Below, one piece after another: positions 177 through 59,130 of a stretch of DNA of 64,000 nucleotides (its first letter is position 1; each line of letters opens with the position of its first letter). Origin of the DNA: a virus (Duplodnaviria > Heunggongvirae > Uroviricota > Caudoviricetes); the IMG/VR virus record IMGVR_UViG_3300032330_001391, positions 53,103 through 117,102 of that record; one strand, written 5' to 3'. The notes beneath the pieces were generated by a model. It had not been told where the DNA came from. It did no database searches and worked only from the letters and a program-made list of their open reading frames with translations. The translations under genes and the position numbers were made by a program.

Positions 177-1220
177 TTAAAAATCAAGCTTAATCCTCAC
201 TAATGCTTCTTTCGTGAAGTTCTTAAGTAATGGTCTAGATAATTTAGCTACTGCTAATAATTCATTTGTATCGTTATATAATCCAATTGTGGTAATATAT
301 GTCTGTGGATTATTAATAAAATAAGGATAAATTACTTCACCTGTTGAACCAGATATATACGATGGATTTTCAGAATAGTTGTACTCAGCACTTCTTGGTC
401 TAACAAATACATAATCTGACGTAATTGTTTCTTGACTATTAAGTGTAAATAAAGCTGATCCACTTATAGCTCTAAATAAACTAGCATTAGGTGATGTAAC
501 TATAGATGGTGATAAACCACTAGCTGATCCACTATATTGGAATCCTATACCACCACTTGTAGCGAAATCGGCCAATGCTAATGGATTTAATATGATTGTT
601 CCTATATCTGGTAATAACCAACCGTATGAACCTGAGTTTTTAGAGTAGCCATCTGCTGTATTTGCAGCTCCTATAGTGGCTTTTGTACCTTGTGAACCAG
701 TAATAAGTTGAAATACTCTACCAGCTTCACAGTATTGTACAGCAGAAACATAATTACTATTATCAGTTAATGTTATAGATCCTGAACTACCAGATAATTT
801 TAGAGCCAATGAGCCTAAGAATAAAGATTCTTTATATCTTGTTCTATCCATAGATAAAGCATAAAATTGAGATGATATAATTGTACCAAATGTAAAATTG
901 GTATTTTCATCACCTATTACTAAATCTTGCCATTGACCAAAAATAGTACCTGTTGGAGATTTTCCATTTACAGCGGCGTTATAACATAAACTACCACTAC
1001 CATCAGCATTACCATAGGCAATAGCAAATTGAATAGCAGCAGCGGCATCTGTAGATGCTGTTTGATATACATTTAAGTAAAAATTTCCTGACGAACCAGC
1101 AGCTTGTGTTGATGATGTAAAGAATGTAGTTAACGTTGGACTACCATTTGACCATAAGGTTGATGATATAGCGTCCGAACTTACTACAAAATCTTCAGGG
1201 GCTAAGGGACTAAATGCCAT
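177..1220 (-). CDS. virion structural protein (Ser/Thr/Gly/Asn-rich, fiber/baseplate-associated candidate)
   Basis: 347-aa ORF. Low-charge S/T/G/N/Y-rich composition typical of phage fibers. Lies in a contiguous block with baseplate genes. Confidence 0.5.
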   Translation of the reverse strand: MAFSPLAPEDFVVSSDAISSTLWSNGSPTLTTFFTSSTQAAGSSGNFYLNVYQTASTDAAAAIQFAIAYGNADGSGSLCYNAAVNGKSPTGTIFGQWQDLVIGDENTNFTFGTIISSQFYALSMDRTRYKESLFLGSLALKLSGSSGSITLTDNSNYVSAVQYCEAGRVFQLITGSQGTKATIGAANTADGYSKNSGSYGWLLPDIGTIILNPLALADFATSGGIGFQYSGSASGLSPSIVTSPNASLFRAISGSALFTLNSQETITSDYVFVRPRSAEYNYSENPSYISGSTGEVIYPYFINNPQTYITTIGLYNDTNELLAVAKLSRPLLKNFTKEALVRIKLDF

Positions 1221-3915: not shown

Positions 3916-6900
3916 TTATACAACTCCCCCACCTGTACCAGAACTATAAGCTGGTGTTGTAAGTGGTCCTGTACTTCCTGAATCCCAATATAAATATATT
4001 TCTCCTGGGTTTGGTGATGTATTAGGATCTAGGAATAGATTAAGTGCGTTATTACTTCCAGATAGTTGTGTTGATAAGTAAAATACTGGTTTGTATTTAG
4101 TTTCTATAGTATTAGCATATAAGTAAGGACAATAACTTAATTTACCAGTTTCTGCTACTATAACCGAACCACTAAATTCACCGTTGAAAAACTCATTTTG
4201 GTTAGATTGTGTAAACGCTACATTCCCAAGTAAACTTGGAGTTGTACCACCCCAACTTTGAGTAATATTAATGTACAAATTAGTAGACGCAGTCCCATTA
4301 AGTTGAGGTACTACTCCACCAGAACTACCTGTTGTTTGTTCTATTGGGAATGATTGGTATTGGTTAGATGACGTGTATATTCTTTGTCCATTTAACATTC
4401 CAGGTATGCCTCTTATTGAAGCTGTAATAGTAATATCCTCAAATGTATTAGGACTATTCCATGTTATACTTGGATTAGAACCACTACCATATACAGATTG
4501 AGTAGTAGTTAAATTTAATTGTGGTGTAGGATAACGATTACGTTCTAATAAATGTTGTTTAATTACAACACCAGATGCTAAATCAGTATGAGCAGGAACA
4601 AAATCCTGTATCATTTTAAATAGCGAGTTATCAAAGAATTTGATAAGTCTTACATAATTCCAAATATTATAATTTGAACTATATTTTTGGAAATACAAAT
4701 CACGTAACGCATCTAACGTTGGATAATGAGTATTTCTAGATGGTATTTCTCTTGGATCTCCAATATATTCACCAATGTTGAAATACCCAAATGTATCGTT
4801 TATATCGTCGTTTATTTCGTTTTGTGGTGAAAATGCTACTTCAACATAATCAATATTATTAGTATAAGAACTACTTATAGATGGTTGTTGTTGTATTGAT
4901 ATAAATGGTGATAATACATTAGCGTTAGGGATATTACTGTCACTGCTACTGTATGGTAATACTATATTTTTGTTTTGTATCTTCTCAGATATAGCGTTTT
5001 GTATACCAGCAGGTACTTGGTCGTAAAAGAATGTCTCATAATTACTAACAAATGAACCTGATGGGCTTATATATGCTCCATTTTTCCCATATGGTAAAGC
5101 TGAATTAAAAGATGATGTGGTAGCCCAAGAACCTGTTACTCTAGGGTGTATTGATGTGCTGCCTGTGTATAATTCACCTCCTAATGGTAAACGAAATGCT
5201 AAATAATTATACCCGTTTCCAACTCCATTACCTTCAATAGAATATGGATTCATTATATAATCTTTAACACTAGATTCATTTAAATTTATATTCCCATAAT
5301 AACGTATTTCTTGTAATGAACCAGAAAATTGACTATATGTTCTTGAATTATATACTATACTATTTTTAAAAAATGAAGATGTTACTCCTGTTGTCCAATC
5401 ACTAGGAGTTATTCTGCCTGAAGCTGACGCGTAATACCCTAATTGATTTCCATCATATCCATCATATTGTATATTTCCACCATATAAATAAGCATCATTC
5501 CCATTAACAATTGCTGTTATAGACCACCACTCTTCATTTAAAAATGGTAAATATATTGTTAATCCTTCAGCAGGAGTAGATGAAGGATAAAATGTTAATT
5601 CTGAATATAAATTGTATAGGTTTGGAATTGAGCCGTTATATGAACCACTAGCTAGTCCTGAACCAGTATAGTTTAGTACAATGCATGTTTTAGTCCCATC
5701 ACCTAAATTCCATAATACTTGTTGTGGAGTATTAAAGATATTGGTAGATGACGATACTTTAAATCTAAATTGTAATACTGTAGGTCTATTACTAGTTGAA
5801 TTCCATGATGAATCTAATTCCCAATTAGTTTGAACAGCTCGAGTAGATACTCCTGGAGATATGTAATTATAGGCATAGTTATACTCATCTTGCCAGTAGT
5901 CCCAAGTGTTACTATTTTTATCTTTTCCTCCAAACTCATTTATTCTTAATATAGTATCAGGAATACCATATGATGTTATTAAAGCACGTAAACCTTCAGG
6001 TGTACCTTTCTTTTTTAGAATATAAGGCAAGTTATGATAAATGCGTTTATATGTTTCAGCATTGATATCAAATGTAGGATCTAATGATGCTGTAGATGAG
6101 GCAGTAACATAATTGTTTATATACTCTAAAAATGAACCAGTAGGTACAGGTAAAGAAGTAGTTGTGTAAGGTAAATTATATAAACTACCTGATGGTGTAA
6201 TACCAAGTATAGCCGAGTATAAATCGTCTGTTGAAAAATTATTTTGATATATTTTTATACCTAGATCTCTTAAAACATCAGCTACTAAATCTTTAGATAT
6301 ACCATAATTTACTCGATTATCAGCATTATATTTGTTAGTAACATCTTTAATATAAACCCAAACACTATCAAAGTTTTGACCTACCATATCAACAAATAAC
6401 ATATATTGATCATTAGCATTATCTTCTCTAATATATGATGGTATAGAGTTTACTAAACGATCATTATTATTTGAATCATATAATGATGCTGTCGCTGATT
6501 GAGCTGTCAAAAATGCTAAACCAGCAACTGAACCAGTAGAAGCATTAATATAAGGATATGTTGAATTAGTTTTAGGCCAAGCATTACTACCTGATTCATA
6601 ATATAAGTAATACTCATAGCCATCAAATCCAGTTATTATTTCATCTATTTTATTTAACCATATGTTACTACTAGATGATATATATGGATTTGTAGTACTT
6701 GTAATTAAATTAGCATTTGATTGATATTGACCAATTAATGATAGTTTATAATAAAAATTTTCTAAACGTGTTTGGGCTGATGAGAAAAATACAAATTCAG
6801 AATAATCTGAGTAGTCTATATTAATTTCTAGTCCTTTTTCTGCTAGTACACTATTAATTTGATATTGTAAACTACCTGTACCTAAAGTAGATGAATTATT

Positions 6901-17041: not shown

Positions 17042-17070
17042 ATATATAAATATATGGCAGAATAAAAAAG

Positions 17071-17091
17071 CACCAACATTACATTGGTGCT
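17071..17091 (-). terminator. rho-independent terminator hairpin closing the tRNA cluster
   Basis: gcaccaa-cattaca-ttggtgc hairpin. On the minus strand the stem is followed by TTTTTTATT. Confidence 0.5.
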
Positions 17092-17127
17092 AAAAAATAA
17101 AAAACAATAAATCATTAAACATACATG

Positions 17128-17207
17128 TACCCTCGATCGGACTTGAACCGATACGTCTCTCGACACGGCTTCTAAGACCGCTGTGTATACCATTCCACCA
17201 CGAGGGC
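17128..17207 (-). tRNA. tRNA-Leu (anticodon TAG), class II with long variable arm
   Basis: Hand-folded: acceptor GCCCTCG/CGAGGGT, D-arm, anticodon loop CTTAGAA, variable hairpin GTCGAGAGAC, T-arm TCGG-TTCAAGT-CCGA, discriminator A. Confidence 0.6.
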
Positions 17208-17324
17208 ATATTTGCTAGGTCACCGATGCCACCTAGCGTGGAGAGTAAAGTTTTGTCTAATTTCTCTTATGAGACATAGTCGCAGGATCTCTCTTATTCT
17301 TCAACCCGAATCGGTATTAAGGTG

Positions 17325-17411
17325 TAGTCAGGACAGGATTCGAACCTGCGACAATATAACCAATTTTTATTGGATAGCATAAACTACTTTGCCATTACAT
17401 ATTACCTGACT
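17325..17411 (-). tRNA. tRNA-like gene, 87 nt, aberrant internal structure
   Basis: Perfect 7-bp acceptor AGTCAGG/CCTGACT and canonical T-arm GCAGG-TTCGAAT-CCTGT. D/anticodon region does not fold canonically: a CCAAT-AAAA-ATTGG hairpin and a candidate 6-nt loop. Confidence 0.4.
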
Positions 17412-17552
17412 GTGTTTTAAAAAACGATTAAATATACTACAGTAAAAGCAGCTGAGATCATTAAAAATGCGACTACTAGTGACATAAGATACATCTCAAC
17501 TGGGTGCATTTTACTCAACATAAATTCTAGTTTCTTTTTCATAATTTTTATG

Positions 17553-17677
17553 CAGTCAGGACAGGATTCGAACCTGTATGTGATATCTTTCACATTATCT
17601 ACTTAACCATTTAGCTCGGGATTTTCGAACTTTTTACTGTTAAGCAATTCAGCATCTACCAATTGCGCCACCTGACT
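17553..17677 (-). tRNA. tRNA-like gene, about 125 nt, with roughly 50-nt extra internal sequence
   Basis: 3' half (T-arm plus acceptor, 23 nt) identical to the 17325..17411 element. Matching 5' acceptor AGTCAGG at 17671-17677. 6-bp hairpin ATGTGA-AAGATA-TCACAT just 5' of the T-arm. Interior too long for a canonical tRNA. Confidence 0.35.
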
Positions 17678-17688
17678 ATGTTCTCTTG

Positions 17689-17760
17689 TAGTCCCATCAA
17701 GAATCGAACTTGAAATAACAGCTTAGAAGGCTGTGGTTATATCCATTTAACTATAGGACC
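17689..17760 (-). tRNA. tRNA-Arg (anticodon TCT)
   Basis: Hand-folded: acceptor GGTCCTA/TGGGACT (2 G-U pairs), D-arm GTTA-AATGGATA-TAAC, anticodon stem ACAGC/GCTGT with loop CTTCTAA, T-arm TCAAG-TTCGATT-CTTGA. Confidence 0.6.
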
Positions 17761-17766
17761 AATAAC

Positions 17767-17903
17767 CTACTTAGATAATGTTGTATCTGTAACTACTGTT
17801 GTAGTATCTGTTGTAGGTGTGGTGGTACTTTGTGTTCCTGTAGAACTGCAAGAAACAACAAACATTGTTGCGATCATAATCGCGGCTAAAACTACTTTTT
17901 TCA
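17767..17903 (-). CDS. small lipoprotein (45 aa), first gene of the tRNA transcription unit
   Basis: MKKVVLAAIMIATMFVVSC... signal peptide with a lipobox-like VVSC, followed by a Thr-rich tail. Below the 60-aa ORF-track cutoff. Confidence 0.4.
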
Positions 17904-17925
17904 TATTTTTAAATTTTAATTTACA

Positions 17926-17960
17926 CTAAATATACTATTAAATCTTTTAAAGGCCAAATT
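17926..17960 (-). promoter_or_regulatory. conserved phage promoter (Bacteroidetes -33/-7 type) driving lipoprotein + tRNA cluster
   Basis: Plus strand reads actaaatatactatta...aaggccaaatttt. Reverse complement gives TTTGG-N-TATATTTAGT. Confidence 0.5.
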
Positions 17961-17962
17961 TT

Positions 17963-18421
17963 TTAAATATATCTTTTACCTATTTCTTTTATCACATCAA
18001 TGGCTTCATTAATGTCTATTTTAAAGAATTCCCTATTACTATTGACCCGGTACGAATCTAAGTATATATGGATATCATTTTCTAAGAATTCACCTTCATG
18101 ACACTTAAATGCAAACTCAACTTTAAATGGTATAGGAACACCAGTAGATGCAGATATTTGTTTAGCACGTTCTTCTGGAGTTAATTTAGTAATTCCTATC
18201 TTAACTATATTAGGCATGGATTCATTAGATAAAATATATACCCAATATTTCCCTTCACCTTCTCTATGGATAGGATATTTTTTCTGATCTGTATAGTAAA
18301 AGACATAATCCCATTTTCCTTCAGAACATGGTATACGAGTAAAGTATGATGCTGGTTGCCCTAAAATATCATCTTGTGTACTTATATATTTCTCTGCTTC
18401 ATATGGTGTTATATACCTCAT
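17963..18421 (-). CDS. T5orf172 (GIY-YIG-like) domain protein
   Basis: 152 aa. The YWVYILSNESMPNIVKIGITK...RAKQISASTGVPIPF pattern is characteristic of the T5orf172/MUG113 domain. Confidence 0.55.
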   Translation of the reverse strand: MRYITPYEAEKYISTQDDILGQPASYFTRIPCSEGKWDYVFYYTDQKKYPIHREGEGKYWVYILSNESMPNIVKIGITKLTPEERAKQISASTGVPIPFKVEFAFKCHEGEFLENDIHIYLDSYRVNSNREFFKIDINEAIDVIKEIGKRYI

Positions 18422-20323: not shown

Positions 20324-20360
20324 TAAATATACGTTTATTTTTTAGGTGAGCCAAATTTAT
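20324..20360 (-). promoter_or_regulatory. conserved phage early promoter
   Basis: taaatatacgtttatttttt aggtgagccaaattt. One of two tandem copies upstream of the start at 20295. Confidence 0.5.
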
Positions 20361-20393: not shown

Positions 20394-20430
20394 CTAAATA
20401 TACGTTACTAATTTTAGGTAACCAAATTTA
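20394..20430 (-). promoter_or_regulatory. conserved phage early promoter (tandem second copy)
   Basis: actaaatatacgttactaattttaggtaaccaaattt. Confidence 0.5.
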
Positions 20431-20692: not shown

Positions 20693-20728
20693 TAAATATA
20701 CGCCTAATATTTTGGGTAGCCAAACTTA
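20693..20728 (-). promoter_or_regulatory. conserved phage early promoter
   Basis: actaaatatacgcctaatattttgggtagccaaactt. Reverse complement is TTTGGCTACCC-N-TATATTTAGT. Confidence 0.55.
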
Positions 20729-20992: not shown

Positions 20993-21030
20993 CTAAATAT
21001 ACGTTCTTAATTTTAGGTAACCAAACTTAT
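20993..21030 (-). promoter_or_regulatory. conserved phage early promoter
   Basis: actaaatatacgttcttaattttaggtaaccaaactt. Confidence 0.55.
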
Positions 21031-21923: not shown

Positions 21924-21960
21924 TAAATATACGCTTTGAAACTTGGGTAACCAAATTTAC
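21924..21960 (-). promoter_or_regulatory. conserved phage early promoter
   Basis: attaaatatacgctttgaaacttgggtaaccaaattt. Confidence 0.55.
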
Positions 21961-22194: not shown

Positions 22195-22233
22195 ACTAAA
22201 TATACGTTATAAGACTCGGGTAACCAAATTTAC
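22195..22233 (-). promoter_or_regulatory. conserved phage early promoter
   Basis: actaaatatacgttataagactcgggtaaccaaattt. Confidence 0.55.
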
Positions 22234-22745: not shown

Positions 22746-22785
22746 TTAAATATACGTTCTAAAATTCGGGTAACCAAATTTACCT
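22746..22785 (-). promoter_or_regulatory. conserved phage early promoter
   Basis: gttaaatatacgttctaaaattcgggtaaccaaattt. Confidence 0.55.
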
Positions 22786-23413: not shown

Positions 23414-23436
23414 AACCTTTATTTTTTATTTGAATT

Positions 23437-23472
23437 AAATATACGTTATAAGACTCGGGTAACCAAATTTAT
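23437..23472 (-). promoter_or_regulatory. conserved phage early promoter
   Basis: attaaatatacgttataagactcgggtaaccaaattt. Confidence 0.55.
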
Positions 23473-23679: not shown

Positions 23680-23718
23680 TAAATATACGTTCTAAAATTC
23701 GGGTAACCAAATTTACTT
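23680..23718 (-). promoter_or_regulatory. conserved phage early promoter
   Basis: actaaatatacgttctaaaattcgggtaaccaaattt, immediately 3' of the tRNA at 23721. Confidence 0.55.
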
Positions 23719-23720
23719 TG

Positions 23721-23792
23721 CAGCACGGACAGGATTCGAACCTGCATCTCCTATCTACAATGATAAGGCGTTACCAGTTACGCCACCGTGCT
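23721..23792 (-). tRNA. tRNA (anticodon region TTGTA; candidate Thr-TGT) with unusual 6-nt anticodon loop
   Basis: Acceptor AGCACGG/CCGTGCT, D-arm GCGT-AACTGGTA-ACGC, T-arm GCAGG-TTCGAAT-CCTGT. Anticodon stem best folds as CTTATC/GATAGG closing a 6-nt loop ATTGTA. Confidence 0.45.
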
Positions 23793-24524: not shown

Positions 24525-24563
24525 ACTAAATATACGTCTTAAAACTTGGGTAGCCAAATTTAC
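24525..24563 (-). promoter_or_regulatory. conserved phage early promoter
   Basis: actaaatatacgtcttaaaacttgggtagccaaattt. Confidence 0.55.
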
Positions 24564-25607: not shown

Positions 25608-25640
25608 CTAAATATACGTCTTAAAACTCGGGTAGCCAAA
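25608..25640 (-). promoter_or_regulatory. conserved phage early promoter
   Basis: actaaatatacgtcttaaaactcgggtagccaaa. Confidence 0.5.
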
Positions 25641-26693: not shown

Positions 26694-26730
26694 CTAAATA
26701 TACGCTTAAAATTTAGGAAAGCCAAACTTT
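26694..26730 (-). promoter_or_regulatory. conserved phage promoter directly driving tRNA(CAT)
   Basis: actaaatatacgcttaaaatttaggaaagccaaactt, about 30 nt upstream of the tRNA 5' end. Confidence 0.5.
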
Positions 26731-28394: not shown

Positions 28395-28424
28395 AACCTT
28401 TTATTTTTTATTTAAACTAAATAT

Positions 28425-28460
28425 ACGTCTTAAAACTTGGGTAGCCAAATTTACCTTTTA
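28425..28460 (-). promoter_or_regulatory. conserved phage early promoter
   Basis: actaaatatacgtcttaaaacttgggtagccaaattt. Confidence 0.55.
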
Positions 28461-33323: not shown

Positions 33324-33358
33324 TTAAATATACGTTTAAAATTTAGGGAAACCAAATC
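33324..33358 (-). promoter_or_regulatory. conserved phage promoter
   Basis: attaaatatacgtttaaaatttagggaaaccaaatctt. Confidence 0.5.
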
Positions 33359-33994: not shown

Positions 33995-34030
33995 ACTAAA
34001 TATACGCTCAAAATTTAGGAAAGCCAAATC
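33995..34030 (-). promoter_or_regulatory. conserved phage promoter
   Basis: actaaatatacgctcaaaatttaggaaagccaaatctt. Confidence 0.5.
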
Positions 34031-41608: not shown

Positions 41609-42748
41609 TTAATGTGAATCACCCACATCATGTTTTTCTCCATAAATTAAATAGTCTGGATTAATTACTTTAGCTACTTTATGTCTATCTCCACTTATAT
41701 GTTTAATTACAATACCTTCGTGTGGTACTTTGGTTCCTTCAATAAAGTTATTGAATGTGAACTTATCTTGAATTTCTTGAGACCAATTGCCTTCATACAA
41801 AATAGGTGTCACAGGTAAATTCAACTCATACTTTAAAATATTGAGCTTTGTACTAACATCACAATAATTTCCATCCATGGTAACATCAAAACCAACAAAC
41901 TCAATACCTTTCAAACCATAATCATAATTTTTTTGGATTCCGGCTCCATAAATTTCTCCATAAATAACAATTCCTGATCCAAGATCAAGACTATACTTAC
42001 CTGATTTAAAGAACTCCCACAACAATTCTCTGATTGCATATTTTTCAGCAATAGTTTTCCAAACATCAGTTGAATAAAATCCTTGTGAATCAGAACCTTT
42101 TTCTACATTATGTGAACCATAAACATACTCAAATTCAACCCATTTATTTCCAAAGAAACGTCTTACTTTATCCCATAATGATAATTTATTTTTTCTAACA
42201 ATACCATAACGAGCATTTGTACCATGTACCTTGCGAGTGATTTCAACCACATCTTCTTCTGTAAACATTCCTGGAACATTCCTTGAATTAGGAAATTTAT
42301 AGTAAATACCAAAGTTGGGATTTTGATGGTATTTAATCTTTTTACCTGATGATAATTGTACTTCTACAGCTGGTGGTTCATATTTGAATATCTTTAACAC
42401 ATCCATCATATCCTCTCCTTCATCCCATTTAGTATTAGCATAACCAGTTGCCTTAGTAGCCATACTTATAGGTATAATTAAACACTCTGAATATGTTCCC
42501 CTTAATTTAACAGTACGTACACGTTGACCTTTACGTAAGTAATTAGTTACATTCATTGCATCTGAAAGCTCTTGAGGTATAACAGCATCTGTAGTTGCTA
42601 CTACAACTAATCCACCTTCAGCATATTGTCCTTTTTGTATAATACAATTCCATCCACCAACAACTGCTTGTTCAATATTATCTGCTCCAGGAATTGGTTT
42701 AATTTCGTTTATACGTGCTACATAGCACACACTATTTTGATTTTCCAT
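41609..42748 (-). CDS. RNA ligase, Rnl2-like nucleotidyltransferase with N-terminal OB/tRNA-binding-like domain
   Basis: 379 aa. Motif I KVHGTNARYG (compare T4 Rnl2 KIHGTN). N-terminal ARINEIKPIPGADNIEQAVVGGW resembles EMAP/Myf tRNA-binding OB folds. Confidence 0.55.
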   Translation of the reverse strand: MENQNSVCYVARINEIKPIPGADNIEQAVVGGWNCIIQKGQYAEGGLVVVATTDAVIPQELSDAMNVTNYLRKGQRVRTVKLRGTYSECLIIPISMATKATGYANTKWDEGEDMMDVLKIFKYEPPAVEVQLSSGKKIKYHQNPNFGIYYKFPNSRNVPGMFTEEDVVEITRKVHGTNARYGIVRKNKLSLWDKVRRFFGNKWVEFEYVYGSHNVEKGSDSQGFYSTDVWKTIAEKYAIRELLWEFFKSGKYSLDLGSGIVIYGEIYGAGIQKNYDYGLKGIEFVGFDVTMDGNYCDVSTKLNILKYELNLPVTPILYEGNWSQEIQDKFTFNNFIEGTKVPHEGIVIKHISGDRHKVAKVINPDYLIYGEKHDVGDSH

Positions 42749-43727: not shown

Positions 43728-43768
43728 CTTAATTTAAATATGTTGTAAATATACGATAAAAAATTTAG
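43728..43768 (-). promoter_or_regulatory. conserved phage promoter
   Basis: taaatatacgataaaaaatttaggtagccaaatttt. Confidence 0.5.
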
Positions 43769-44001
43769 GTAGCCAAATTTTCTTTTTCAAAAAATCCTAC
43801 GCCTAAAGCTAAACACATCATATATAAACAGCTTCTATCATATCGTATCATGTCTATAAGTAATTCATCTGATATTGTGTTGAATGCCTCTAATGCTGTG
43901 TTAGGCGAATATTGACTATCTTCCTTGTCCAACATATGCTTTTGGTTTTGGGGTATGTTTATTATGAGATTTTTTAGCTTTACCTTTTTTTCTTTTACCA
44001 A
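43765..44001 (-). CDS. small hypothetical protein
   Basis: 78-aa ORF. Confidence 0.35.
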   Translation of the reverse strand: MVKEKKVKLKNLIINIPQNQKHMLDKEDSQYSPNTALEAFNTISDELLIDMIRYDRSCLYMMCLALGVGFFEKENLAT

Positions 44002-59091: not shown

Positions 59092-59130
59092 CGTAAATAT
59101 ACGATAAAAAATTTAGGTAGCCAAATTTTC
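59092..59130 (-). promoter_or_regulatory. conserved phage promoter inside the glycan island
   Basis: taaatatacgataaaaaatttaggtagccaaatttt, near-identical to the copy at 43728. Confidence 0.5.

Follow-up and report, generated by a model that had tools for sequence, protein, structure and literature searches.

Two tRNA-like genes in a phage tRNA cluster belong to an apparently undescribed family with a constant outer shell and exchangeable interiors

Introduction

Clusters of tRNA genes in phage genomes are usually taken to assist codon usage or to stand in for tRNAs that host defences cut. One such cluster, in a 64-kb stretch of DNA from a virus of the Caudoviricetes (hereafter the window), raises the question of what else these clusters encode: it holds two genes that share the 3′ half of a tRNA around interiors that do not look like those of a tRNA. 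The original prediction left four options for them, namely intron-containing tRNAs, permuted tRNAs, tRNA-derived regulatory or decoy RNAs, and decaying duplicates. Only the third of these is backed by the evidence described here. This evidence also places the two genes in a very large family of phage elements whose shell is constant and whose interiors are exchangeable, a result that had not been foreseen. We estimate a probability of roughly 0.6, judged from sequence, that both are genes for non-decoding tRNA-like small RNAs that would be processed as tRNAs are and whose exchangeable body would be the functional part.

Results

Two genes with an identical 3′ half in a tRNA cluster

The exact 23-mer AGTCAGGACAGGATTCGAACCTG occurs twice on the plus strand of the window, at 17326-17348 and 17554-17576, where 0 matches are expected (100 shuffles). 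Read on the minus strand it is CAGGTTCGAATCCTGTCCTGACT, the 3′ part of a T-arm followed by the 3′ strand of an acceptor stem. Each copy has the matching 5′ acceptor AGTCAGG that had been proposed for it, with the complement at 17405-17411 for the shorter gene (element B) and at 17671-17677 for the longer one (element A). Because the two acceptor strands stand in the normal order, a permuted tRNA is unsupported.

The tRNA-Arg and tRNA-Leu genes between which both elements had been placed were confirmed by ARAGORN and Rfam (Table 1); A and B themselves were not called by either program at default thresholds. Both are on the minus strand, as are the flanking tRNAs, inside one predicted promoter-to-terminator unit. 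The promoter motif matches the window 44 times, where 20 ± 5 matches would be expected, and the position of one of these, upstream of the cluster, suggests that it is the cluster promoter. We found no homologue of the 41-aa ORF between A and B in the related loci that were fetched. The spacer between B and tRNA-Leu is 76% identical over 114 nt to a sequence that lies downstream of a different shell element in another locus (L049), and is possibly a further structured RNA. A 3′ half related to the 23-mer, with 3 mismatches, lies at 23722-23744 inside a third aberrant gene. Close relatives of the window phage were not found among deposited phages.

Table 1 Features of the tRNA cluster, of elements A and B and of a third aberrant gene in the window
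Feature	Coordinates	Strand	Remarks
Promoter-like site TTTG-N20-TATATTTA	17927..17958	−	Bacteroidota −33/−7 architecture; upstream of cluster
45-aa lipoprotein-like ORF	17767..17904	−	First gene of the predicted transcription unit; homologues in related loci L121-L126
Canonical tRNA-Arg(tct)	17688..17760	−	Directly upstream of element A; 61.9 bits against Rfam tRNA
Element A, tRNA-like RNA gene, A-type shell	17553..17677	−	124 + 1 = 125 nt, including discriminator G at 17553
A: acceptor 5′ strand AGUCAGG	17671..17677	−	
A: tRNA-Leu-type D-arm GCGC-AAUUGGUAG-AUGC	17652..17668	−	Family consensus GCGG-AAUUGGUAG-ACGC
A: two-tier arm in place of anticodon arm	17601..17645	−	Helix Pa GCUUAAC/GUUAAGU around helix Pb AGUUCG/CGAGCU
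A: variable-arm-like hairpin Pc AUGUGA-AAGAUA-UCACAU	17578..17595	−	2 compensatory pairs
A: T-arm ACAGG-UUCGAAU-CCUGU and acceptor 3′ strand CCUGACU	17554..17577	−	Contains the 23-mer
41-aa predicted membrane peptide ORF	17417..17542	−	Between A and B, flanked exactly by them
Element B, tRNA-like RNA gene, B-type	17325..17411	−	86 + 1 = 87 nt, including discriminator A at 17325
B: helix P2 5′ strand AUAU (17399-17402), then hairpin AUGGCA-AAGUAGUUU-UGCUAU (17374-17395)	17374..17402	−	
B: variable module X, hairpin CCAAU-AAAA-AUUGG (17360-17373), then UU and P2 3′ strand AUAU (17354-17357)	17354..17373	−	
B: T-arm GCAGG-UUCGAAU-CCUGU and acceptor 3′ strand CCUGACU	17326..17349	−	Contains the 23-mer
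Conserved 117-nt spacer element	17208..17324	−	Between B and tRNA-Leu
Canonical tRNA-Leu(tag)	17127..17207	−	Last cluster gene; ARAGORN and Rfam
Intrinsic terminator-like hairpin and T-run	17069..17091	−	Closes the cluster
Third aberrant tRNA-like gene	23720..23792	−	Same T-arm; acceptor AGCACGG; cloverleaf with 6-nt ‘anticodon’ loop AUUGUA

Conserved folds around non-canonical interiors

In both elements a 7-bp acceptor stem is stacked on a 5-bp T-stem with a UUCGAAU T-loop. The statement that neither interior folds into a canonical D/anticodon arrangement holds in full for B, which has no D-arm and no anticodon-type arm; A lacks the anticodon arm as well, but has a recognisable D-arm. Under permissive settings A scored 27.1 bits against the Rfam tRNA model (RF00005; gathering score 29), with a 68-nt insertion replacing the anticodon arm, and B gave a partial match of 16.5 bits.

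The two-tier arm of A ends in a 7-nt loop, AAAAUCC, that has no U33. Its helix Pa is 96% paired over 4 sequences, with 2 compensatory pairs, and Pb is invariant. The 6-bp hairpin noticed at the outset (ATGTGA/TCACAT) is real and covaries, appearing in relatives as AUAUGA/UCAUAU and AUGAGA/UCUCAU. A GCAATT...AATTGC inverted repeat had also been reported; it is present in the sequence of A, where it overlaps the D-arm, but its outer pairs are missing from the three relatives. Over the 4 A-type sequences the whole fold is 99.3% paired, with 4 pairs changed on both sides. Four contigs, whose only other resemblance is at most about 45% amino-acid identity in one gene, carry copies of element A that are 89-95% identical, and the similarity stops within a few bases of the RNA ends. 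Because it does so in contigs that are otherwise unrelated, we take the conserved unit to be the RNA itself.

Element B is one of 21 B-type sequences, which are 98.5% paired in a fold with 6 pairs changed on both sides (0/500 shuffles); slid registers are only about 35% paired. G·U pairs occur in the sense orientation only, and the opposite strand would give A·C mismatches. P2 and the adjoining hairpin of B covary with the other 20 members. In those members module X measures between 5 and about 45 nt, with CC...GG closing it in every case. The copy in the window is the most divergent, and its loop is without the GG of the consensus AAAUGGUA, the part that would form a tRNA elbow. Covariation support covers these two subfamilies, the A-type from four sequences.

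These observations bear on whether A and B are decaying pseudogenes left by a duplication within the cluster. Both score below the tRNA gathering threshold, and an identical 23-mer could hint at recent duplication. However, outside the shell A and B have no similarity to each other, and the shell is invariant over hundreds of copies whose interiors are wholly different. Comparison with relatives found both elements conserved rather than absent. Because A and B each belong to a subfamily that is kept, with compensatory base-pair changes, across many otherwise unrelated phage contigs, we reject decay, which we consider extremely improbable.

An intron probably does not restore a decoding tRNA

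Neither A nor B has a 7-nt anticodon loop with U33 on a 5-bp stem, and such RNAs would therefore be unable to decode. ARAGORN isotype calls scatter over the family. We nevertheless considered the possibility that A, and perhaps other members, are true tRNA-Leu(UAG/CAG) genes with a short intron in the anticodon loop, in which case splicing, for example by a nuclease and a phage RNA ligase, would yield a decoding tRNA. With intron mode at the default threshold, ARAGORN indeed called A as tRNA-Leu(tag) with a 32-nt intron. The resulting loop, CUUAGGU, has U33 and G37 and is very tRNA-Leu-like, and the loop of a relative (L255) would be CUCAGGA, also with a Leu anticodon. The window encodes an RNA ligase (41609-42748), and a helix lies across the splice region of A, as in eukaryal and archaeal pre-tRNAs.

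However, intron mode called 62% of shuffled interiors against 65% of real ones, and the gap for Leu calls is small, 17% versus 11%. The relaxed and intron modes of ARAGORN are thus uninformative for these genes, since shuffled interiors are called nearly as often; the UAG to CAG change is also uninformative, because the anticodon stays a Leu one whatever base takes position 34. The anticodon stem that splicing would produce is 80% paired and shows no covariation, and all four sequences have an A·G mismatch in it; the competing helix Pa buries the would-be anticodon. The proposed 5′ splice site lies inside Pa, and a bulge-helix-bulge motif is missing, as no 4-bp helix has 3-nt bulges on either side. 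A group I intron would need far more than the 32-68 nt of the insert, and no Rfam intron model matched. A canonical tRNA-Leu(tag) already lies about 350 nt downstream in the cluster, a plausible Leu anticodon arm is missing from most family interiors, and intron mode did not bring B above threshold. We conclude that these are probably not intron-containing tRNAs, and we regard splicing to a decoding tRNA as very unlikely.

A constant shell in uncultured phages

Elements A and B share the features that define the shell: an AGUCAGG/CCUGACU acceptor stem, a T-arm (A/G)CAGG-UUCGAAU-CCUGU, a purine at position 73 and C74. The 23-mer is found in at least 120 uncultured viral contigs, many of them multi-copy, with up to 9 copies per locus. 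Among the genomes of about 185,000 species it occurs in only 18 contigs, all of them metagenome bins and mostly Bacteroidota, and it was absent from the cultured phages searched. The carriers are probably phages of freshwater Bacteroidota. Three candidate cultured carriers were rejected: the match in Enterococcus phage EFDG1 is an ordinary tRNA-Gln, that in Tenacibaculum Gundel_1 is an ordinary tRNA-Met, and phage pT24 shares the theme and lacks the shell. A host tRNA mimic or an attP core was also rejected, as the 23-mer is absent from isolate genomes and present in several copies per locus. Neither by sequence string nor by concept did we find a description of this family in the literature; a 2023 survey of structured RNAs in IMG/VR names a few anonymous ‘tRNA-like’ candidates (PMC10690425). 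The family is apparently undescribed.

Family members are 70-180 nt in size, and most have a tRNA-Leu-type D-arm with an A15-U48 pair. The constancy of the shell is partly ascertainment, because only exact matches to the 23-mer were collected in the main scan, and 17 bases at the 5′ end were kept fixed in that for the B-type. Positions that were not imposed by the search are nevertheless conserved: T8 in 125/131 members, A14 in 111/131, A15 in 113/131, U48 in 110/131, A73 in 119/131 and C74 in 127/131. The canonical tRNAs of the same contigs likewise encode C74 (213/237) and often have T at −1 (157/237), and the nearest canonical tRNA is on the strand of the element in all 107 cases. The acceptor AGUCAGG is unlike that of any canonical tRNA-Leu in these contigs, all of which have normal anticodon arms. 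Compensatory changes in the T-stem were found in ClpP-anchored relatives; the acceptor stem has no compensatory double changes.

Rfam searches of the window and of the 16 loci with the longest inserts found no known RNA family in the interiors, and gave tRNA hits only. Some members pass the tRNA model because it skips a large insertion, for example one (L197) at 38.6 bits. No recurring partner protein lies beside the elements, the best family being DUF932 in 21 of about 165 loci.

We asked what could hold the shell constant. It might serve as processing punctuation, a tRNA-shaped signal that lets RNase P and 3′ nucleases free small mRNAs, in which case the interior would be functionless. RNase P recognition needs only the acceptor/T half. 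In one predicted transcription unit, A and B exactly bracket the 41-aa ORF, and some members occur singly between protein genes, immediately ahead of the next ORF. Against this, unrelated phages retain the A-type and B-type interiors with compensatory changes, punctuation would require no more than a minimal or ordinary tRNA, and up to 9 copies per locus lie amid tRNAs that already give cut sites. Strict conservation of the acceptor sequence and of a Leu-type D-arm would be superfluous for punctuation. We consider punctuation an unlikely role for these genes.

Interiors are replaced as cassettes

The region expected for the anticodon and variable arms is hypervariable, with 230 unique elements falling into 199 clusters. 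In closely related phages whose flanks are 85-99% identical, the interiors found at one locus are the same or have no relation to each other, and are never intermediate: among 54 syntenic pairs, interior identity is below 60% in 31, at least 85% in 23 and between these values in none. Three loci (L127, L128 and L131) have flanks that are 93-99% identical and three unrelated interiors, and at least five interiors without mutual similarity occur in one intergenic slot, whose flanks are conserved as far as the edges of the shell. This bimodal distribution indicates that interiors are replaced as cassettes between phages with the shell as the boundary.

Exchange of this kind could also reflect a role at the DNA level, the 23-26-bp ends being recombination or homing sites, or the ends of a mobile element, and the fold an evolutionary leftover. 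The breakpoints of the interior swaps lie inside the shell, element A is common to otherwise unrelated contigs, and the lack of double changes in the acceptor stem fits such a role. GIY-YIG-like T5orf172 genes are found near 12 loci, including the window (17963-18421), and the homing endonuclease gene segB of T4 is located in a tRNA cluster. However, selection on an RNA fold is evident from the compensatory changes in P2, the T-stem and the interior helices. G·U pairs are confined to the sense orientation, and the strand agrees with that of neighbouring tRNAs in 107/107 cases. No target-site duplication is visible at the junctions and no recurrent integrase or transposase lies nearby; moreover, exchange at the DNA level is compatible with RNA function. 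We therefore consider a purely DNA-level role quite unlikely, and retain the reading of non-decoding small RNAs with exchangeable bodies.

Folded alone, interiors have a mean z of −1.0, a modest shift from the −0.34 of flanks, and only 9/119 close end to end. A general model of a stem-closed aptamer in a scaffold is too simple for this reason, and we rejected it.

Could the RNAs be charged with leucine?

The shell may be kept since host LeuRS charges these RNAs, which would make them leucine-accepting tRNA mimics; this would refine the reading of non-decoding small RNAs and would not exclude it. A charged RNA without an anticodon might occupy LeuRS or EF-Tu outside normal decoding or feed an aminoacyl-tRNA-dependent transferase, or charging might protect the RNA. 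A tRNA-Leu without its anticodon arm and long variable arm is reported to be still charged if A73 and the D/T-loop contacts stay (PMC9976931). Of the elements reported to suffice for leucylation in E. coli, the A-type shell largely keeps A73, A15 and U48 at the frequencies given above, along with U8, A14 and G18G19, and its D-loop, AAUUGGUAGA, is like that of bacterial tRNA-Leu, a feature that a generic processing handle would not need. The A15-U48 pair and the G18G19/A20a D-loop are present in the sequence of window A and of most A-type members.

However, both are absent from B-type members, including the window copy, which have no Leu-type D-arm; window B, which has A73, also has no GG in its loop. 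In window A position 73 is G, which in E. coli is an antideterminant for LeuRS (PMC9976931); G73 also occurs in 11/131 family members and in 5/21 of the B-type. The identity rules are those of E. coli LeuRS rather than of Bacteroidota, and the acceptor, as noted, differs from that of every canonical tRNA-Leu in these contigs. Leucylation of most members is possible from these features, but as the reason for the constancy of the shell we find it doubtful.

Discussion

The data favour a reading in which A and B would be co-transcribed with the true tRNAs from a host-type promoter to a shared terminator, as their layout and strand suggest. The shell would make each RNA a substrate for host tRNA maturation, with RNase P cleavage at A1, 3′ trimming and completion of CCA after the encoded C74; the flanking signals shared with canonical tRNAs point to such maturation, and the outcome would be a stable L-shaped RNA with defined ends that, by its sequence, does not decode. 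Such processing does not by itself account for the invariant acceptor sequence. The body would be the functional payload; covariation shows that its fold is under selection in the A-type and B-type subfamilies. Bodies pass between phages by recombination inside the constant shell, as the bimodal identities show, so that one locus has alternative bodies. More speculatively, the most likely task of the bodies would be to bind host factors or distract them, because turnover of this kind is typical of host-interaction or counter-defence loci; their function is possibly in host interaction or anti-defence.

The closest known counterparts are RNAs C and D of T4 (species 1, 139 nt, and species 2, 119 nt), whose function is still unknown (PMC3014915, PMC9697503). 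They lie in a phage tRNA cluster directly after tRNA-Arg and on the same strand, and neither is in Rfam as a family. RNAC ends in a canonical T-arm, CCGGG-UUCGAAU-CCCGG, and an acceptor-like 3′ strand around a non-tRNA interior; A and B resemble it, being small RNA genes of non-tRNA type that have a tRNA-like 3′ domain and lie within a phage tRNA cluster. However, when the sequences are read side by side, T4 rnaC and rnaD have only the generic T-loop in common with the shell, and RNAD has no tRNA-like fold (z −0.8). No family with a constant shell and variable interiors, and no cassette exchange, has been described for them, and their host is E. coli rather than a member of the Bacteroidota.

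Other systems share the architecture in part. The tRNA-like domain of tmRNA has the same topology, an acceptor/T-arm minihelix with the remainder inserted at the site of the anticodon arm, and B-type members similarly enclose their body in helix P2 at that position. The shell nonetheless has U3:A70 rather than G3:U70, and shell elements (70-180 nt, against about 350 nt for tmRNA) have no tag reading frame and no pseudoknot set; the Rfam tmRNA model (RF00023) had no match in the window, and a relaxed ARAGORN ‘tmRNAp’ call was made only below default thresholds. The A-type shell corresponds to the part of minimalist tRNA-Leu substrates reported as sufficient for charging by LeuRS (PMC9976931). 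Those substrates are engineered, whereas shell elements are natural genes, of which window A has G73 and the B-type has no Leu D-arm.

Irregular or allo-tRNA-like polycistrons group tRNA-shaped genes whose anticodon domains are non-standard and which do not function in translation (PMC7609411). The cultured Bacteroidota phage pT24 has two 79-nt ‘tRNA-Undet’ genes, in which one arm is extended, and a ‘tRNA-Pro’ whose loop is 5 nt long and whose T-arm, ACAGGTTCGAATCCTGT, is identical to that of the shell. However, allo-tRNAs differ in acceptor stem and architecture (8/4 or 9/3), and neither an invariant shell nor interior swapping has been reported for these irregular polycistrons or the pT24 genes. 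Bacterial Y RNAs (YrlA) are non-coding, imitate the D/T architecture of tRNA and are found in some phages (PMC4201824). Their ends form a Ro-binding stem and the tRNA-like part is internal, whereas the ends of shell elements are the acceptor stem; Rfam gave no Y RNA match in the window or in the 16 loci with the longest inserts.

In the engineered ‘tRNA scaffold’, the acceptor, T and D parts are kept for processing and stability and a payload replaces the anticodon arm. That scaffold is a laboratory construct with a stem-closed insert, unlike nearly all of the natural interiors (9/119 closed end to end). We tentatively propose, as a possibility rather than a probability, that phages of Bacteroidota run a modular ‘tRNA chassis’, in which one invariant shell derived from tRNA-Leu would be both a universal handle for expression, processing and stability and a boundary of homology for recombination of a large and rapidly changing repertoire of small structured RNA payloads. 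As RNA decoys or aptamers, such payloads could act against host defence or against factors that target tRNAs. If true, this chassis would be an RNA analogue of a gene-cassette system, undescribed for any virus.

In many uncultured phages, a sizeable share of ‘tRNA-like’ genes are non-decoding by their sequence and form one coherent shell family with exchanged bodies. Since tRNA finders miss shell genes or mis-call them, with random isotypes, ‘Undet’ labels or false introns, censuses of phage tRNAs and inferences of recoding are distorted. The shell offers a simple sequence handle for finding hundreds more members. If their bodies are functional payloads, these genes would constitute a new class of phage small RNA and a natural counterpart of the engineered tRNA scaffold, and would offer a way into the 50-year-old question of T4 RNAs C and D.

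Two tRNA-like elements in a phage tRNA cluster

On the plus strand of the window, a 23-mer occurs at 17326–17348 and 17554–17576, where chance would predict none; on the minus strand it reads CAGGTTCGAATCCTGTCCTGACT and comprises the 3′ portion of a T-arm and an acceptor 3′ strand. The complementary AGTCAGG lies upstream of either copy and tRNA genes were called on both sides on the minus strand, confirming the original prediction as to the repeats and the position of the two elements, A and B, between tRNA-Leu and tRNA-Arg. ARAGORN called neither, nor did Rfam at its curated thresholds. Under permissive settings, A scored 27.1 bits against the Rfam tRNA model (gathering score 29), with 68 nt skipped at the anticodon-arm position, and B gave a partial match of 16.5 bits. 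Both folded better than shuffled sequences (z = −3.9 for A, −3.1 for B); hence, the original observation stands. Its statement that neither has a canonical D/anticodon arrangement held for the anticodon, but not for the D-arm of A, which is recognizably of the tRNA-Leu type. A decoding anticodon loop is absent from elements with this shell, by which we mean the constant acceptor (AGUCAGG/CCUGACU) and T-arm, usually with a tRNA-Leu-type D-arm, around a variable interior.

Features of the RNA gene cluster and other window features
Feature	Position	Strand	Remarks
T5orf172/MUG113 (GIY-YIG-like) gene	17963–18421	minus	directly upstream of cluster
Promoter-like site	17958 to 17927		Bacteroidota −33/−7 architecture; precedes cluster
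45-aa lipoprotein-like ORF	17767–17904	minus	conserved in relatives L121–L126
tRNA-Arg(tct)	17688–17760	minus	canonical, nearby
Element A	17553–17677	minus	124 nt + discriminator G
41-aa predicted membrane peptide ORF	17417–17542	minus	between A and B; no homologue among compared loci
Element B	17325–17411	minus	86 nt + discriminator A
117-nt spacer	17208–17324	minus	between B and tRNA-Leu
tRNA-Leu(tag)	17127–17207	minus	canonical, nearby
Intrinsic terminator	17091 to 17069		3′ of tRNA-Leu
Third aberrant tRNA-like gene	23720–23792	minus	acceptor AGCACGG (A1)
RNA ligase gene	41609–42748	minus	PF09414 + PHA02142 OB domain; ~24 kb from cluster
Promoter-like repeat, example copies	20324–20355, 20395–20426, 20693–20724, 20994–21025, 21924–21955, 22197–22228, 22747–22778, 23436–23467, 23680–23711, 24527–24558, 25609–25640, 26695–26726, 28418–28449, 33325–33356, 33997–34028, 43746–43777, 59094–59125	minus	

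We infer a transcription unit in the order promoter, lipoprotein-like ORF, tRNA-Arg, A, membrane-peptide ORF, B, conserved spacer, tRNA-Leu and terminator. Over 114 nt, the spacer aligns at 76% identity with positions 4075–4181 (minus strand) of the viral contig locus L049, where the match directly follows a different shell element; its 5′ part and a 3′ hairpin, GCTAGGT-GGCATCGGTG-ACCTAGC, are kept, the middle varies, and a T-run follows the hairpin in L049. The spacer might represent a further structured RNA or else a conserved trailer. The third aberrant gene has a T-arm identical to that of A and B and a normal-sized cloverleaf (46.7 bits against Rfam tRNA), but a 6-nt ‘anticodon’ loop, AUUGUA, with a 2-nt anticodon according to ARAGORN.

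The phage itself is AT-rich (~30% GC) and myovirus-like, with almost all genes on the minus strand. It encodes a baseplate wedge protein, ClpP, DNA ligase, ThyA and RNA ligase; no close relative was found among deposited phages. The RNA ligase bears on tRNA repair or any splicing model. The T5orf172/MUG113 family is found near shell elements in 12 loci, and its position by the window cluster recalls the homing endonuclease gene segB in the T4 tRNA cluster. A relaxed pattern matched 44 promoter-like sites across the window (20 ± 5 expected), that of the cluster being one of them. About 25 copies of a highly similar repeat with the −33/−7 architecture, TTTGG[CT]TACC...CGTATATTTA, lie mainly upstream of small genes in the 20–34 kb region, and are probably one temporal class of phage promoters.

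The shell marks a large phage RNA family

Comparison with related phages, as originally proposed, found the elements to be conserved: the 23-mer occurs at 120 or more viral loci, many of them multi-copy, and 3′ shells with up to two mismatches number 260 among the matches listed, with up to nine per locus. Extracted elements share a 5′ part, AGTCAGG-TG-GCGGAATTGGTAGACGC, and a 3′ part, T-ACAGGTTCGAATCCTGT-CCTGACT-AC, the apparent constancy of the latter being inflated by the exact 23-mer that the main scan required; between them lie 20–130 nt without consensus. The search placed no constraint on the D-arm, discriminator or flank statistics, and at search-independent positions T8 was conserved in 125/131 elements, A14 in 111, A15 in 113, U48 in 110, A73 in 119 and C74 in 127. 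A relaxed detector gave 230 unique elements, forming 199 BLAST clusters. ARAGORN missed most of the family or assigned scattered isotypes, and the sole Rfam finding was ‘tRNA with a large insertion’. Since the acceptors of canonical tRNA-Leu genes in these contigs are ordinary (GCCCGGG, GCCGAGG and others) and their anticodon and variable arms normal, we conclude that the AGUCAGG shell marks a separate class.

With one genome each for ~185,000 species, the 23-mer was found in 18 contigs, all from metagenome bins and none from isolates; most bins are labelled Bacteroidota (Chitinophagia, Sediminibacterium, Flavobacterium, Saprospirales) from lakes and streams. The shell family is phage-specific and not a host tRNA. 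Cultured phages of the deposited collection lack the 23-mer, their nearest matches being ordinary tRNAs with the same T-arm. In one lineage, TATATTTG just upstream of the element fits the Bacteroidota −7 promoter consensus, TAnnTTTG.

Shell elements share C74 and T at −1 with the canonical tRNAs of their contigs, of which 213/237 and 157/237, respectively, have these bases. Shell elements within 2 kb of a canonical tRNA share its strand in 107/107 cases, and copies at multi-copy loci lie on one strand in 60/60. These common flanking signals and strand suggest that the elements are matured like tRNAs. We conclude that, at the level of sequence, they form a conserved, strand-specific, structure-constrained RNA family among tRNAs, with the same flanking signals.

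Conserved folds of the A-type and B-type subfamilies

A has three relatives (L197, L254, L255), with which it shares a type-II cloverleaf: acceptor, D-arm, a two-tier arm (Pa, 7 bp, around Pb, 6 bp, with loop AAAAUCC), a variable-arm hairpin, Pc, and T-arm. In this small sample of four sequences the fold is 99.3% paired with four compensatory pairs, whereas slid registers are ~30% paired; compensation is seen in CUUAAC/GUUAAG versus CUCAUC/GAUGAG and in AUGUGA/UCACAU versus AUAUGA/UCAUAU versus AUGAGA/UCUCAU. RNA identity is 89–95% across the four contigs; elsewhere it is at most ~45% at the amino-acid level, in one gene, and similarity stops within a few bases of the RNA ends.

Scanning with a B-specific pattern, with 17 bases fixed at the 5′ end and the 3′ end free, gave 45 contigs and 21 distinct sequences for alignment; the free end showed the same acceptor with wobble changes only. 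The proposed fold runs from the acceptor 5′ strand through UA, the P2 5′ strand (AUGC) and GUA to a hairpin, AUGUGA-AAAUGGUA-UCACAU, followed by CC, a variable module X and GG, and returns through UU, the P2 3′ strand (GCAU), CGUU and the T-arm to the acceptor 3′ strand. Pairing reaches 98.5%, and both partners have changed in six pairs; 0/500 shuffles match this, and slid registers are ~35% paired. The Leu-type D-arm is absent. Window B is the most divergent member, with P2 ATAT/ATAT for ATGC/GCAT, GC/CG swaps in the hairpin, and a hairpin loop without GG. Module X (alignment columns 41–86; L215 versus L237/L245) is ~45 nt or nearly absent at loci whose flanks are ~90% identical and, when present, has its own covarying helix (GUCCA/UGGAC versus GCCCA/UGGGC); it is a modular insertion/deletion within the conserved fold.

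T-stems of ClpP-anchored relatives also show compensation (CAGG/CCUG, CAAG/CUUG, UAGG/CCUA). Acceptor stems show single wobble-compatible changes only, with no compensatory double changes among family elements or in the A-type and B-type alignments. The A-type and B-type folds are under selection, and their conservation with compensatory pairs argues against decaying duplicates, one of the possibilities first raised.

A is unlikely to be an intron-bearing tRNA-Leu

Another possibility was an intron. In intron mode, ARAGORN did call A as tRNA-Leu(UAG), interrupted by a 32-nt intron and with CUUAGGU as a convincing loop, in which case A would be spliced to decode. However, this mode called 149/230 real elements and 425/690 with shuffled interiors, nearly as often, and the Leu share was 17% and 11%, respectively. 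In the spliced anticodon stem of A, pairing is 80%, all four sequences have an A.G mismatch and covariation is absent, whereas Pa, which has two compensatory pairs, buries the would-be anticodon. Moreover, the insert has no bulge-helix-bulge motif and is far below group I intron size, a canonical tRNA-Leu(tag) already lies ~350 nt downstream in the same cluster, and most family interiors lack a Leu-like arm. We therefore do not accept A as a canonical cloverleaf, and consider splicing to be of low probability; a permuted tRNA likewise found no support. The Leu-like loop halves of A are best read as what remains of the anticodon loop of an ancestral tRNA-Leu(UAG) after an insertion split it, in agreement with the Leu-type D-arm. 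The broader category originally proposed, tRNA-derived RNAs that do not decode, was right.

Interiors are exchanged as units

At one locus, three contigs (L127, L128, L131) with flanks 93–99% identical over 500–700 nt on either side carry unrelated interiors of 68, 104 and 103 nt; between L128 and L131, divergence starts within the 5′ acceptor and stops within the T-arm. Across all elements, 54 pairs from different contigs had both flanks at least 85% identical; interior identity was <60% in 31 and ≥85% in 23, with no intermediate pair. Within one lineage, the same slot, flanked by two conserved protein genes, carries at least five unrelated interiors (159, 89, 96, 92 and 132 nt), with flanks ~90% identical up to ...TATATTTGCAT|AGTCAGG and CCTGACT|ACAC.... 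Bimodal interior identity between conserved flanks indicates that recombination inside the constant shell exchanges interiors like cassettes; they are replaced as units rather than drifting.

L197 (~1–60 and 715–745, minus strand) has a 5′ shell half that is perfect, AGTCAGGTGGCGGAATTGGTAGACGC, and after it >400 nt that are richer in G+C and, to the eye, structured; no 3′ shell was found for this unit, whose start recurs at the end of the contig. An assembly artefact or a much larger payload could explain it. Several interiors (L032, L024, L085, L091, L058, L070) contain a second T-arm-like hairpin, e.g. GTTGGTTCGATCCCAAC and CCCGTTCGAGTCGGG, and may thus include nested tRNA-like modules or tertiary motifs built on T-loops.

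Discussion

All functional statements here rest on sequence analysis. We propose that the shell would supply RNase P and 3′-end/CCA maturation and tRNA-like stability, with the body as payload; rapid body turnover at fixed loci might, speculatively, reflect host-interaction or counter-defence roles. Interiors as simple stem-closed inserts were not borne out, and no consistent partner protein is encoded near the elements. A serious refinement is that A-type RNAs may be charged by leucyl-tRNA synthetase: A73, A15-U48, G18G19 and D/T contacts are reported to suffice for leucylation without anticodon and variable arms (PMC9976931), and the A-type shell keeps them. However, window A has G73, an antideterminant for the E. 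coli enzyme (PMC9976931), and B-type RNAs lack the Leu D-arm.

The closest classical analogues are T4 RNAC and RNAD, small stable RNAs directly after tRNA-Arg in the tRNA cluster. The T-arm of RNAC is canonical and its 3′ end acceptor-like, but neither RNA is related in sequence to the shell family. The tmRNA tRNA-like domain has the same topology, although its identity pair and tag are absent here, and engineered tRNA scaffolds share the design logic. Allo-tRNA-like polycistrons are a further comparator, whereas in Y RNAs the ends are arranged oppositely. The cultured Bacteroidota jumbo phage Tenacibaculum phage pT24 (L258, LC168164) carries tRNA-like genes at 2290–2368, 2453–2525 and 2657–2735. 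Two of them, called ‘tRNA-Undet’ and of identical type, are 79 nt long and extended in the ‘anticodon’ arm; the other, a ‘tRNA-Pro’, has a stem of 6 bp, a loop of 5 nt and a T-arm identical to the shell family’s. This phage is tractable and related in theme, but does not belong to the family.

A 2023 IMG/VR survey reports thousands of anonymous structured-RNA candidates, a few of them called ‘tRNA-like’ (PMC10690425), which may overlap with the present family; in the literature searched, we found no description of the AGUCAGG shell or of a constant shell with swappable interiors. What was noticed in the window leads to a large phage RNA family whose evolutionary dynamics are unusual.
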